Source: Escherichia coli (GTDB lineage: Bacteria > Pseudomonadota > Gammaproteobacteria > Enterobacterales > Enterobacteriaceae). Taken from it: DNA of 5,716 bases. Both the position numbers and the translations under genes were made by a program. Of this stretch, positions 2,950 through 5,716 are shown in pieces. Position 1 is the stretch's first letter. Every line of letters begins with the position of its first letter. The stretch is taken from NCBI RefSeq assembly GCF_013315695.1, contig NZ_CP054357.1; one strand, written 5' to 3'. Under the pieces are notes generated by a model, which saw only the letters and a list, made by a program, of their open reading frames with translations, was not told where the DNA came from and made no database searches.

Positions 2950-3003
2950 GTGCTTCCTCGCTCATTCGCTCGCTACGCTCGGTCATTGAGACTGCGGCGA
3001 GCA
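2950..3003. other. ssi / primosome-assembly-site-like element (ColE1 PAS-like)
   Basis: TGCTTCCTCGCTCATTCGCTCGCTACGCTCGGTCATTGAGACTGCGGCGAGC closely resembles the ColE1/pBR322 segment GCTTCCTCGCTCACTGACTCGCTGCGCTCGGTCGTTCGGCTGCGGCGAGC (from memory), which lies in the ColE1 primosome assembly region. Its function here is inferred. Confidence 0.45.
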
Positions 3004-3078
3004 CAACCACCACTCACACACAGACGCTAAAACCATTGCCAAACGAAACACGGGAAATCACCCCAAACCTACCCGCTC

Positions 3079-3097
3079 AAAAAAACGCCTACAGGCG
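3079..3097 (-). terminator. Short hairpin plus T7 run just beyond the ori (possible rep transcript terminator)
   Basis: The minus strand reads CGCCTGTAGGCG followed by TTTTTTT (plus-strand A-run 3079-3085). The stem is only 4 bp, so this is weak. Confidence 0.3.
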
Positions 3098-3130
3098 CTG
3101 TTATCTGATAAGGCTTGTTATCTGGTCTCA
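3090..3130 (-). other. ori: ColE2-type replication origin (Rep binding and priming site) immediately 3' of rep
   Basis: The minus strand reads AAAATGAGACCAGATAACAAGCCTTATCAGATAACAGCGCCTGT, with CAGATAACA repeated. This matches my recollection of the ColE2-P9 minimal origin (TGAGACCAGATAAGCCTTATCAGATAACAGCGCC). The rep stop codon TGA (3128-3130) is the first triplet of this element. Confidence 0.7.
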
Positions 3131-4057
3131 TTTTGCGAGATCTGGATCACATTTTAGTTTTCGATAGTATGTGGCACGACTGATCCCTAACGTCACCCAC
3201 GGCTTCAGAGTTCGTGCCGATGTGGCAACGGCTACACGCTTTGATTTCTGACCTTTAATAGCCTGATTTTCTGATGAATTTGCATTACCGCCCTTACGAC
3301 CTCGAGCAGCCTGTACCGCGGAAAAGCCTTCAGGAGAGAATTTGCGGTAGGTGTATTTCGCAATACTCTTGCCAATAGCCCGACATTCAGCCGGAGAAAG
3401 CGGAACGGGAAGCGATGCGTTGTACATTTCGACACGCTGAATCACTGCATCAAGCCACGGTGAGAATGCTGGCCAGCCCTGACGAATCGCCCTGTAAGAC
3501 CATTTACGGCCCTTTTCGAACAGATACCAGTTTCGCCCCATCCCGTAATCTTTATCGACGCGACGGCGCGCTGAGGCGCTCAAATCAAGATAATCCGCCA
3601 GTTCGTCGAGGGTATAGAGTTCCCAACGCCATTCCACCACCTGCCATTCCTGGTGGAACGGATTTTTGCAGATCAGGCCGCTGTAGTTCACATCCGCGCC
3701 CAGTTTTTCACACAGCGCACGCTCAATCACGGCAGCGTATTTGAGCGCCGAAGCCGATGCATCCGGCGCGGTTCTCACCGGAAGAGTGAGCGCGTAGAGC
3801 AGATGCGCGTGCCCGTTACGTGGATTTTTTACGGTGATGTTCGGGGCCGGACAGTTCCGGTCGCTCCAGTCGATCGCTGCCCCCGTCCGGTCAACGTCAA
3901 AGGCCAGCCAGTGCTGCGCATGTGGCTGGTTCTGCTGGATGAAACGGGCAAGGATGGCGATATCTTTCGGTAGAATGCGAACGCCGTACGTGAAATCGTT
4001 CGTACAGTACGGTTTGTGCGGTAATTTTTCCCTGAAGAGTTGAAGTACGGCGCTCAT
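3128..4057 (-). CDS. rep: ColE2/ColE3-family replication initiator Rep (plasmid-specific primase), 309 aa
   Basis: Translation MSAVLQLFREKLPHKPYCTNDFTYGVRILPKDIAILARFIQQNQPHAQHWLAFDVDRTGAAIDWSDRNCPAPNITVKNPRNGHAHLLYAL... is near-identical over long stretches to ColE2-P9 Rep as I remember it. GGAGG sits 12 nt upstream of the ATG, and the cognate ori-like sequence lies directly downstream. Confidence 0.9.
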   Translation of the reverse strand: MSAVLQLFREKLPHKPYCTNDFTYGVRILPKDIAILARFIQQNQPHAQHWLAFDVDRTGAAIDWSDRNCPAPNITVKNPRNGHAHLLYALTLPVRTAPDASASALKYAAVIERALCEKLGADVNYSGLICKNPFHQEWQVVEWRWELYTLDELADYLDLSASARRRVDKDYGMGRNWYLFEKGRKWSYRAIRQGWPAFSPWLDAVIQRVEMYNASLPVPLSPAECRAIGKSIAKYTYRKFSPEGFSAVQAARGRKGGNANSSENQAIKGQKSKRVAVATSARTLKPWVTLGISRATYYRKLKCDPDLAK

Positions 4058-4155
4058 GTGTTAGGATTTCCTCCGTGTGTTACGACCCACACGCCCCTTG
4101 AATTTTCGTGACAGTCTTGGCGGATCGGCACGAATTTCAGGGGCGTTTGTTTTTC
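4040..4155 (+). ncRNA. Candidate antisense RNA I (copy-number control RNA complementary to the rep mRNA leader); boundaries approximate
   Basis: Plus-strand promoter-like elements TTGAAG (4040-4045), 16-nt spacer, TAGGAT (4062-4067), overlapping the rep start codon. A long imperfect hairpin plus T-run ends at about 4155. ColE2 replicons are known to use an antisense RNA of about 115 nt against the rep leader. With this promoter the transcript would be about 80 nt, so the true 5' end is uncertain. Confidence 0.45.
4094..4155 (+). terminator. Rho-independent terminator-like hairpin plus T-run (3' end of candidate RNA I; same structure in complement forms the rep leader stem-loop)
   Basis: Left arm CCCCTTGAATTTTCGTG (4094-4110), right arm CACGAATTTCAGGGG (4129-4143), imperfect with one or two bulges and an 18-nt loop, followed by CGTTTGTTTTTC (4144-4155). 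Confidence 0.5.
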
Positions 4156-4163
4156 AGTTGGTT

Positions 4164-4192
4164 ACACTACACCCAACGGCAAATCCTGTCGA
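4164..4192 (-). promoter_or_regulatory. Putative rep promoter (minus strand: -35 TCGACA, 17-nt spacer, -10 TAGTGT)
   Basis: Reverse complement of 4187-4192 is TCGACA and of 4164-4169 is TAGTGT, separated by 17 nt. The predicted start near 4157 would give a ~100-nt rep leader fully covered by the candidate RNA I. Pattern-based only. Confidence 0.3.
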
Positions 4193-4213
4193 TCCTTCCC
4201 GAAAACCAGACCC

Positions 4214-4241
4214 ATTTACCATAACTCCTCTTGTACGTACC
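4214..4241 (-). other. XerC/XerD core recombination site (cer/psi-like multimer resolution site)
   Basis: The minus strand reads GGTACGTACAA-GAGGAG-TTATGGTAAAT. The XerD arm is identical to ColE1 cer (TTATGGTAAAT) and the XerC arm differs from cer (GGTGCGTACAA) at one position; the central region is 6 bp, as in dif and psi rather than cer's 8 bp. Accessory sequences would extend to about 4430 on the XerC side. Confidence 0.65.
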
Positions 4242-4342
4242 CTCTAAAACGCTCTCAATCGCTTTCTGACGCAAAAAACTCAAAAAGACAAGATAAACCT
4301 AGGGAAAACACAAAAAACGCGTCAGAATCGTTTTTAGGGGTC

Positions 4343-4356
4343 TGCATAACTATGCA
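4343..4356. promoter_or_regulatory. Perfect palindrome TGCATA-AC-TATGCA: candidate ARG box (ArgR accessory site) for the cer-like site
   Basis: 14-bp perfect palindrome about 120 bp from the XerCD core on the XerC side. It resembles the ARG-box half-sites (TGAAT....ATTCA) with an A-to-C substitution; cer-type sites require ArgR and PepA binding about 100 bp from the core. Confidence 0.35.
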
Positions 4357-4481
4357 CAAAAGCGATTAATGATCGGTTTCACCCCTTCAGAAGCGCGAAC
4401 TGGTCAAAACAGCAAACTTTCTCATCCAGAAAGCCAGCTGAACTAACCCGCATGAAAACAAATTTCCAAACATATCCAGTC

Positions 4482-4508
4482 TGGACAACGAAATATCGAC
4501 AATATAAA
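4482..4508 (+). promoter_or_regulatory. Putative sigma70 promoter for the cargo operon (-35 TGGACA, 15-nt spacer, -10 TATAAA)
   Basis: TGGACA at 4482-4487 and TATAAA at 4503-4508, about 100 nt upstream of the ATG at 4610. The spacer is short; pattern-based only. Confidence 0.3.
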
Positions 4509-4609
4509 ACATCATAATCGTGTTTATGGCGTGTAAAAAAGCTTACAAGAGAATTAGCATTGAAGAGTCATAACAACAAATTCCAAAAATCAAACCAGAG
4601 GATAGGAAA

Positions 4610-5560
4610 ATGAATAATTTTATAAATGAATGTATTTCCGCTCCGAGAATAAACGGCATGGCAGAATTTTTCTCATCAACTGCATCAGGGGAAAAACACA
4701 AACCTTTTAGACTAGTAGAAATAGATGATCGGCTTTTTCATTCTTATGATTACATTAAGTTTGCCAAACACCTCACAAAAAACAGCGGCCCTTTCGTTAA
4801 TCATTATTTTTGCAGTATACCATACAGCAAGGAAGAAGAGTGCAGATTAGGAACAACAGTAATAAAATACGCAATCACGCTAAACAAAAAATTAAACACA
4901 TGGTGTCTTGGTATGGCTGAGGGCGCAATGGCAAGAACCATTTCAGAATTATCAAAAGGAAACATACAAACATTAACAACCAGTCCAACAAAAGAAAATG
5001 AACATGCATTTTTTAAGTATAGCTCAAGTGAAAACGCTTATTTTATTTGCACTCCATTTTTCCTGTTAGAGGAAAGACTAAAAAATTCAAATCTTAAACA
5101 ATTTAATCAAGGATTCGATATTATAATAGAAGACACCACATTTCAAATGTACTCACCTAACAGATCTGGGCAAATAAACCACGTAAAAAGGCTATTAAAT
5201 AATGATGGTATTTTCATATTTACAGAAAAACATAGTTCAGAACATGATGAATATCAAAAAAGAGAAATCCAAAAAGATTATTCATTCAAACAAAGGTATT
5301 TCTCGAAAGATGAGATTAACACCAAAAAGGAAATCGTACTAAACACAATGAATTTGAATGAAGTTAGTGTTGACGATATGCTTTCCGCAATTAAACAACA
5401 TTTTAAATACGCATCAATATATTGGAATAGCGGAAATTTTTACTCAATCGCCGCCAGCAATTCACTAAAACACATATCAACATTTATAAATTTATTACCG
5501 AAAGCTGCAATTCCTATGGAATATGTATATGAAAAGCTCCCACGAAATATATCATGGTAA
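4610..5560 (+). CDS. Hypothetical protein, 316 aa; possible class I SAM-dependent methyltransferase-like Rossmann core (tentative)
   Basis: SD AGAGGA 7 nt upstream of the ATG; AT-rich. The central region has MTase-like motif spacing: LGMAEGAMARTI (glycine-rich, motif I-like), then about 65 aa later FDIIIEDTTF (motif II-like), then VKRLLNNDGIFIFTE (motif III-like). No canonical GxGxG and no (D/N/S)PP(Y/F) DNA-MTase motif. Stop TAA at 5558-5560. Confidence 0.75.
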   Translation: MNNFINECISAPRINGMAEFFSSTASGEKHKPFRLVEIDDRLFHSYDYIKFAKHLTKNSGPFVNHYFCSIPYSKEEECRLGTTVIKYAITLNKKLNTWCLGMAEGAMARTISELSKGNIQTLTTSPTKENEHAFFKYSSSENAYFICTPFFLLEERLKNSNLKQFNQGFDIIIEDTTFQMYSPNRSGQINHVKRLLNNDGIFIFTEKHSSEHDEYQKREIQKDYSFKQRYFSKDEINTKKEIVLNTMNLNEVSVDDMLSAIKQHFKYASIYWNSGNFYSIAASNSLKHISTFINLLPKAAIPMEYVYEKLPRNISW

Positions 5561-5566
5561 GTAAAC

Positions 5567-5716
5567 ATGGAATATTCAACATTATTATCATTTGCTATCG
5601 TAACCTTATCGCAAACTATATCAATAGGGCCTGGCGTTGCATTGGTTATAAACAATGCCTTTTCACATGGATTAAAGTCATCAATAAAAACAAGTATATA
5701 CATAAGAATTGGCGAG
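5567..5716 (+). CDS. LysE/RhtB-family exporter, N-terminal 50 codons; 3' end runs off the window (continues at 1..423 if circular)
   Basis: ATG at 5567, 6 nt after the stop of the 316-aa gene. MEYSTLLSFAIVTLSQTISIGPGVALVINNAFSHGLKSSIKTSIYIRIGE has the hydrophobic N-terminus and S-x-GPG motif typical of LysE/RhtB translocators (RhtB: ..[20 protein letters not shown]..). There is no stop before the window end, and the window ends exactly on a codon boundary. Confidence 0.75.
   Translation, partial: MEYSTLLSFAIVTLSQTISIGPGVALVINNAFSHGLKSSIKTSIYIRIGE

Follow-up and report, generated by a model that had tools for sequence, protein, structure and literature searches.

Positions 4040-4192 of the window, which is the whole stretch of 5716 nt that was analysed, very probably hold an incA-type copy-number control region of the ColE2 family, in which an antisense RNA (RNA I) represses translation of the replication gene rep. 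From the layout of the region, an antisense RNA I of approximately 81 nt is most likely transcribed from a plus-strand promoter. A ColE2-type RNA I is the best explanation for this stretch because of its homology to known control regions, the invariance of its promoters and terminator, the covariation within its long hairpin, and the retention of the same layout in Xenorhabdus. Control by ColE2 RNA I has been textbook plasmid biology since 1993-94, and the predicted RNA I is a close allele of this long-known regulator; the finding is correct, but an ordinary one given a mechanism already familiar in the 1990s.

With its 5716 bp, the window represents an entire circular plasmid of E. coli, with a ColE2-type replicon. 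Its rep gene (3128-4057, minus strand) encodes a ColE2-type initiator of 309 aa, recognized by the Pfam Replicase domain PF03090 (E = 6e-42) and by 73% identity to the Rep proteins of both ColE9-J (NC_011977) and pColE8 (NC_012882), two classical ColE2-related colicin plasmids. Directly past the rep stop codon lies a ColE2-type origin (3095-3131, minus strand), in which two CAGATAA direct repeats occupy 3101-3124; a search for the repeat pattern returned 1 match against 0 expected, and the origin aligns with the sequence that follows rep in ColE9-J and pColE8. Such CAGATAA direct repeats are typical of ColE2-type origins (PMC3632715), and ColE9-J has been used as a prototype in an earlier study of these plasmids (PMC6856555). 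The preliminary description of this DNA had appealed to the ColE2 paradigm, and homology supports that view, through the PF03090 Rep, the CAGATAA origin, and a match of 77/81 to ColE9-J.

The rest of the backbone consists of a MOBQ relaxase and a TraD-like accessory gene, and a MOBQ42/ColE2 plasmid group has been described before (PMC6856555). Typing with MOB-suite assigned the close relatives to Col156, with MOBQ relaxases, while the window plasmid itself was assigned to rep_cluster_2141 and not to Col156. The plasmid has no colicin operon, and low-GC cargo is found in its place. Plasmid NZ_CP075707.1, likewise of 5716 bp, is identical to the window over 4060-4200, and CP077345.1 (strain FDAARGOS 1389, plasmid unnamed3) matches it at 99.9% over 3000-4400. 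Strain FDAARGOS 1389 carries this window-type plasmid together with a second ColE2-type (Col156) plasmid, CP077350.

We then focused our attention on the control element, which corresponds to positions 4058-4157, directly upstream of the rep AUG and within the 5' leader of the ColE2-type rep gene; it sits between the replication module and a cer-like core (4214-4241). Three features had been reported there previously: promoter-like hexamers on the plus strand overlapping the rep start, a long imperfect hairpin with a T-run ending near 4155, and a minus-strand promoter (TCGACA, 17 nt, TAGTGT) that would start the rep mRNA close to the RNA I terminator. All of them are present, the hexamers around the rep ATG, the hairpin followed by its T-run, and the minus-strand promoter with a predicted start at approximately 4157. 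At the level of sequence, the element thus holds an antisense-strand promoter and an intrinsic terminator that faces the rep promoter.

On the minus strand, the predicted rep promoter (4164-4192) is composed of TCGACA (4192-4187), a spacer of 17 nt and TAGTGT (4169-4164). The rep mRNA leader, the target of the predicted RNA I, extends over approximately 100 nt (4058-4157, minus strand), folds into the complementary long hairpin, and contains a GGAGG (4074-4070) placed 12 nt ahead of the rep start codon (4057-4055). Coupling of rep to a leader peptide was considered as well, and rejected: the 25-codon GUG ORF (4130-4053, minus strand), whose UGA overlaps the rep AUG in the window and in ColE9 types, is not conserved in other RNA I types, where its frame and end point differ or the ORF is absent. 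The region does not belong with leader-peptide-coupled rep control of the IncI-alpha/IncB repY or R1 tap type.

On the plus strand, the predicted RNA I promoter combines a -35-like hexamer, TTGAAG (4040-4045), located within rep codons 5-6 of the opposite strand, with an extended -10 element, TGtTAGGAT (4059-4067), located in non-coding 5' UTR sequence immediately ahead of the rep AUG. The TG lies at 4059-4060, the TAGGAT hexamer at 4062-4067, and the spacer from TTGAAG measures 16 nt, with the two hexamers flanking the rep ATG (complement of 4055-4057). A relaxed promoter scan of 3960-4120 returned TTGAAG/TAGGAT as the sole plus-strand candidate. Both the RNA I promoter and the rep promoter match the consensus at 8/12 positions, and neither was reported by a stricter consensus scan, which also missed the RNA I terminator because the hairpin has internal loops. 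By themselves, the promoter hexamers are not above chance. TTGAAG is unchanged in 15 relatives derived from BLAST and in 88 unique regions, although its conservation is confounded by its location within the rep coding sequence. The -10 region is near-invariant among the relatives even though it lies outside the rep codons, with a G/C alternative at 4064. It sits in the rep translation-initiation region, and conservation of the -35 or of the -10 could have other causes.

The RNA predicted from this promoter would span 4074-4154 on the plus strand, with a 5' end placed to within 2 nt and a 3' end to within 3 nt, both of them predicted. It would begin with a small hairpin (4075-4092; GUGUG/CACAC with an 8-nt loop), the complement of which is the second stem-loop of the rep leader, and continue with a long imperfect hairpin (4093-4144) bearing the loop CUUGGCGGA, in whose apical region (4111-4128) a UUGGCG is found at 4117-4122. 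The long hairpin is the putative terminator stem of RNA I, completed by the U-run TTTGTTTTT (4146-4154) into an intrinsic terminator, and its opposite strand forms the target stem-loop of the rep mRNA. Folding gave a divided answer with respect to the preliminary description: over the broad spans considered there, z-scores were weak (-1.8 and -1.3), whereas the exact predicted RNA (4074-4154) folds at -29.7 kcal/mol with z = -3.07, and only 1/200 shuffles was as stable. Moreover, all of the distinct RNA I variants (27/27) fold alike, with a small hairpin on the 5' side, a long one on the 3' side, and a U-run. The small hairpin has 4-5 bp in every RNA I type, with sequences and registers that differ and cannot be aligned. 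Overall, a conserved stem-loop structure was found for both the RNA and its target. A plus-strand ORF of 56 aa (4077-4247) was treated as spurious.

The region was matched in 1115 PLSDB plasmids, and the element is present in 905/5426 complete E. coli genomes. Among the small-plasmid matches listed for the E. coli genomes that carry it, no RefSeq feature is annotated over the element. A scan of viral contigs for the terminator 19-mer returned no match. In an alignment of 15 plasmids chosen from BLAST hits, three blocks show little or no change, namely the RNA I promoter, the U-run with the adjoining 3' half of the long hairpin, and the rep promoter, and the interior (approximately 4068-4133) is variable. 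The same pattern of invariant flanks and variable interior was obtained with 88 unique regions from a metagenome scan, in which 4140-4158 is invariant by construction, as this stretch, which includes the U-run, was the search pattern. In addition, both rep promoter hexamers are unchanged in the E. coli-type relatives of the two sets. The observation as a whole stands above chance because neither the promoters nor the terminator half change among the relatives, whereas the inside of the hairpin diverges through compensatory changes, a conservation pattern that fits a putative antisense control region.

To evaluate these compensatory changes, RNAalifold was applied to a MAFFT alignment, which recovered only 4 pairs because indels shift the register of the stem, and it was replaced by a covariance-model alignment. 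The model was built from four window-type sequences and aligned 98 hits, 22 of them distinct; these homologues of 4074-4154 are all located at the same position upstream of rep. Within the long hairpin, 92.1% of the cells were paired and both-sided changes occurred in 8/15 pairs, in an alignment that was fitted to the model and with both-sided changes that come from only three or four lineages. The observed values were reached by 0/500 shuffles, and slid controls, in which the partner was moved by 1-3 columns, gave 28-56% pairing as compared with 92.1%. The corresponding figures for the small 5' hairpin were rejected as unreliable, because L005-type sequences were placed wrongly by the model, on the -10 region, which is similar to the hairpin arm of the window. 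In the long hairpin, the RNA I strand has 10 G-U cells and the mRNA strand has 6; covariation does not tell apart the strand under selection, and both RNAs are expected to fold.

The same layout is kept in three Xenorhabdus contigs, in which Rep is 60% identical. There, the columns of the rep promoter read TAGACA-17-TAATTT or TAGTTT, and the antisense strand carries a long hairpin with different stem letters, followed by a GUAUGUGUUU run. With filters off, the best hit of the covariance model in each Xenorhabdus locus was found at the homologous place and antisense to rep, with an E-value of approximately 1e-3. The UUGGCG motif belongs to RNA I in the E. coli types, and in Xenorhabdus it is found on the mRNA strand.

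As the covariation is equally good evidence for a hairpin in the mRNA, and the leader itself folds with z = -2.0, the hairpins might instead act only in cis, as a leader structure of rep that enhances translation or confers stability, with no functional antisense RNA and with plus-strand hexamers that are incidental. The location of the -35 in rep codons and of the -10 in the rep translation-initiation region makes their conservation otherwise explicable, and the structure of the ColE2 leader is itself said, from work of the Itoh laboratory, to be needed for Rep translation. Nevertheless, only on the plus strand is the hairpin followed by a U-run, and the invariant A-run that precedes the hairpin on the mRNA strand would have no obvious role. 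Moreover, variable interiors between invariant flanks are what would be expected from selection for distinct antisense/target incompatibility specificities, and close homologues of the element belong to a plasmid group with an experimentally shown RNAI (PMC6856555). An action in cis alone is in our judgment improbable.

Even less probable is that hairpin and T-run constitute a general terminator or insulator, stopping plus-strand read-through across rep before it reaches the cer-like site and the cargo. The element does have the form of an intrinsic terminator and the appropriate location, between the replication module and the cer-like core, but there is no plus-strand gene upstream for it to terminate (the closest ORF on that strand stops at 2921, with rep and the origin in between), a conserved promoter-like element lies approximately 30 nt upstream of the hairpin, and the hairpin interior diversifies with compensatory changes that a simple terminator does not need.

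A ColE2-type antisense control of rep is consistent with what has been described for ColE2-like plasmids, in which RNAI binds the 5' UTR of the rep mRNA and prevents its translation, a post-transcriptional mode of rep control (PMC6856555, PMC5304414). For the window plasmid, we infer the production of RNA I, its exact ends, a kissing-loop start and the way in which translation is blocked. A constitutive plus-strand promoter straddling the rep start would drive the RNA I of approximately 81 nt, and the U-run past the long hairpin would make its intrinsic terminator. From the facing promoter, TCGACA-17-TAGTGT, the rep mRNA would start near 4157, and its first 84 nt or so would therefore be a perfect complement of RNA I. 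The two RNAs probably make first contact through their loops, at the apical UUGGCG/CGCCAA, and pairing then spreads; the duplex would stop at the 5' border of GGAGG, 12 nt before the AUG, and rep translation would be reduced. The whole leader had earlier been supposed to be covered, which overstates the extent of pairing: RNA I would span approximately 81 of the approximately 100 leader nt, up to the GGAGG edge, and, as the predicted duplex ends there, the last 16 nt or so and the AUG would remain free.

Translation could be lowered because the duplex intrudes on the region where ribosomes bind, or because a leader structure required for translation is lost. In ColE2, where the leader structure itself is reportedly required for Rep translation, the Itoh laboratory is said to have proposed its loss as the route of repression. 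Least probable among the alternatives is that RNA I acts chiefly via cleavage or decay of the rep mRNA (by RNase III or RNase E on the duplex) or via early termination of rep transcription: the predicted duplex stops short of GGAGG and AUG, so that direct occlusion is not guaranteed, and titles cited in PMC10939160 link RNase E to the turnover of ColE2 RNAI, but the published description for ColE2-like plasmids is that translation is prevented (PMC6856555), and transcription attenuation is unlikely because the mRNA strand has no U-run past the hairpin. With translational repression by RNA I, whose dosage follows copy number, Rep synthesis and initiation at the origin would be held down as copy number rises. 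By analogy with the ColE2 family, the RNA is also predicted to repress Rep synthesis in trans and to confer incompatibility (IncA).

The value of these results lies mainly in annotation, as the element is very common and yet bears no annotation in the small-plasmid RefSeq matches listed and meets no Rfam family at threshold. A covariance model of the element could be used to annotate it, and to type incompatibility-relevant variants of common small mobilizable plasmids. It is also possible, though doubtful, that this plasmid has an incompatibility specificity of its own, set by the four substitutions that flank the invariant UCUUGGCGGA loop and by its distinct 5' hairpin. If so, such a specificity would let the window plasmid coexist with a Col156 plasmid in one cell, and specificity within the family would be set outside the shared kissing-loop hexamer, which can sit on either partner.

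Among known antisense systems, the RNA I of ColE1 is likewise a short antisense RNA encoded on the plasmid, and it determines copy number and incompatibility. However, it acts on the primer precursor RNA II instead of a messenger, and ColE1 lacks a Rep protein; an Rfam search of the window region returned no RNAI hit. The name is shared and the system is different.

Closer in their mode of action are the Inc RNA or RNAI of IncI-alpha, IncB and IncK plasmids and the CopA of R1, which are also short antisense RNAs directed against a stem-loop of a rep leader, and which have the apical-loop UUGGCG in common with the window. In the target RNA of the Inc RNA of ColIb-P9, 5'-rUUGGCG-3' is located in the loop, according to Asano et al. 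1998 as cited in PMC10724649. On the other hand, their Rep family is a different one, the window lacks a conserved leader peptide and is not known to form a pseudoknot, and the E. coli types of the element carry UUGGCG on the antisense RNA and not on the mRNA. At permissive thresholds, the only Rfam match was to PK-repBA, below threshold, and no family was matched at threshold. This match covers stem-loop I (4095-4143; model positions 4-52 of 124) with 19.1 bits against a gathering value of 45 and E = 0.95, and it arises because the apical UUGGCG is present. Assignment to PK-repBA, the regulatory pseudoknot of IncB repBA, was rejected, the match being a resemblance of loop motif and not membership. 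The relation of the window to the IncI-alpha, IncB, IncK and R1 systems is at most a homology of mechanism, and not of sequence.

The small mobilizable Col156/MOBQ42 plasmids of Enterobacteriaceae (PMC6856555), in turn, belong to the same replicon family as the window. They have a MOBQ relaxase and a TraD-like accessory gene, as in the window, the same cer-like site, and the same invariant promoters and terminator. They depart from the window in the sequence of the 5' hairpin and inside the long hairpin, and identity across the region is 80-90%.

Lastly, the element has sequence homology to the control regions of the ColE2-related set, represented here by ColE9-J and pColE8. The pColE8 region aligns with the window element apart from an insertion of 34 nt in pColE8, so that the RNA I of the pColE8 type has a 5' hairpin larger by 34 nt, and the window RNA is shorter. 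For pColE8 and for p802A1-7K, another colicin plasmid, an RNA of approximately 114 nt is predicted from the same promoter to the same terminator. The RNA I of ColE2 is reportedly approximately 115 nt long, a size attributed to the 1994 work of Takechi and colleagues, and the prediction for the long pColE8 type agrees with it. As to ColE9-J, the 81-nt element of the window differs at four positions (window 4104, 4114, 4125 and 4126), all of them within or close beside the apical part of the long hairpin, and is identical at the other 77. The window plasmid differs from this colicin plasmid in having no colicin operon. Its predicted RNA I has the same arrangement as that of ColE2-P9 and ColE9-J: it is antisense to the untranslated leader of a ColE2-type rep, its promoter spans the start of that gene, its terminator is directed towards the rep promoter, and it has the same two hairpins. 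The function stated for the ColE2-related RNA I, post-transcriptional repression of rep, is also the same (PMC6856555, PMC5304414). Nevertheless, Rep of the window is only 73% identical to that of ColE9-J and the origin differs, and the control module and the Rep/origin module are therefore mosaic.

Strain FDAARGOS 1389 harbours a pair of ColE2-type plasmids, namely the window itself (CP077345.1) and CP077350.1. The apical loops of their predicted antisense RNA I have UCUUGGCGGA in common, while the flanks of the loop and the 5' hairpin are different. In E. coli types, the RNA I strand bears the loop hexamer UUGGCG (window positions 4117-4122), which in the Xenorhabdus relatives (loci L019-L021, at about 1060-1140) is found on the strand of the rep mRNA instead; in some of the E. 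coli types, UUGCCG or UGGCCG takes its place. In the small hairpin, the 5' arm (4075-4086, GTGTGTTACGAC) is similar to the adjoining upstream -10 region (4057-4068, TGTGTTAGGATT), and this likeness caused the covariance model built on the RNA I span to misalign. It may represent an old local duplication; the counterpart of TGTGTTAGGATT in the -10 region of other types is TGTGTTACGATT.

In nine metagenome loci (L030, L059, L060, L065, L069, L078, L085, L089 and L097), a single contig holds RNA I of two or three distinct types; such contigs may be cointegrates, or chimeric assemblies generated via shared mob or cer segments; contigs with a single RNA I type in duplicate look like dimer assemblies. 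In addition, the region was matched by 396 conjugative plasmids. Many of the large ones among these (e.g., matches H15-H30 and H75-H99), as well as metagenome loci L031, L056, L076 and L080, retain only a remnant. Its junction lies inside the loop of the RNA I hairpin, with an internal rep fragment on one side and, on the other, the hairpin's 3' half together with the U-run and the rep promoter. Such remnants are either not annotated or annotated as 'replication initiation protein'.

A cer-like core for Xer recombination, GGTACGTACAA-GAGGAG-TTATGGTAAAT, is found on the minus strand at 4214-4241, approximately 20 nt upstream of the -35 element of the rep promoter, and it is kept in relatives. 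This core resembles the cer site of ColE1. Sites of this kind have been noted in this plasmid group (PMC6856555).

Regarding the cargo region, comprising window positions 4400-5716 and 1-1200, its GC content is low, at 29-35% compared to 46-58% for the backbone. It contains a LysE-family translocator gene that spans the window ends, and a 316-aa open reading frame with methyltransferase and spermine-synthase matches, all of them sub-threshold. Moreover, a 238-aa open reading frame on the minus strand (481-1197), absent from the five annotated features, had no match in a Pfam search.

The ColE2-type origin is located on the minus strand at 3095-3131, directly past the rep stop codon, and includes two CAGATAA direct repeats at 3101-3124. 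It can be aligned with both ColE9-J and pColE8, two classical ColE2-related colicin plasmids, but the sequence around the first repeat is unlike either of them. When the window is compared to ColE9-J, 77 of the 81 positions in the RNA I region (4074-4154) match, whereas the Rep proteins (encoded at 3128-4057 in the window) are only 73% identical and the origin is also different. The replicon is a mosaic, and this discrepancy suggests that the control module has been exchanged between replicons.
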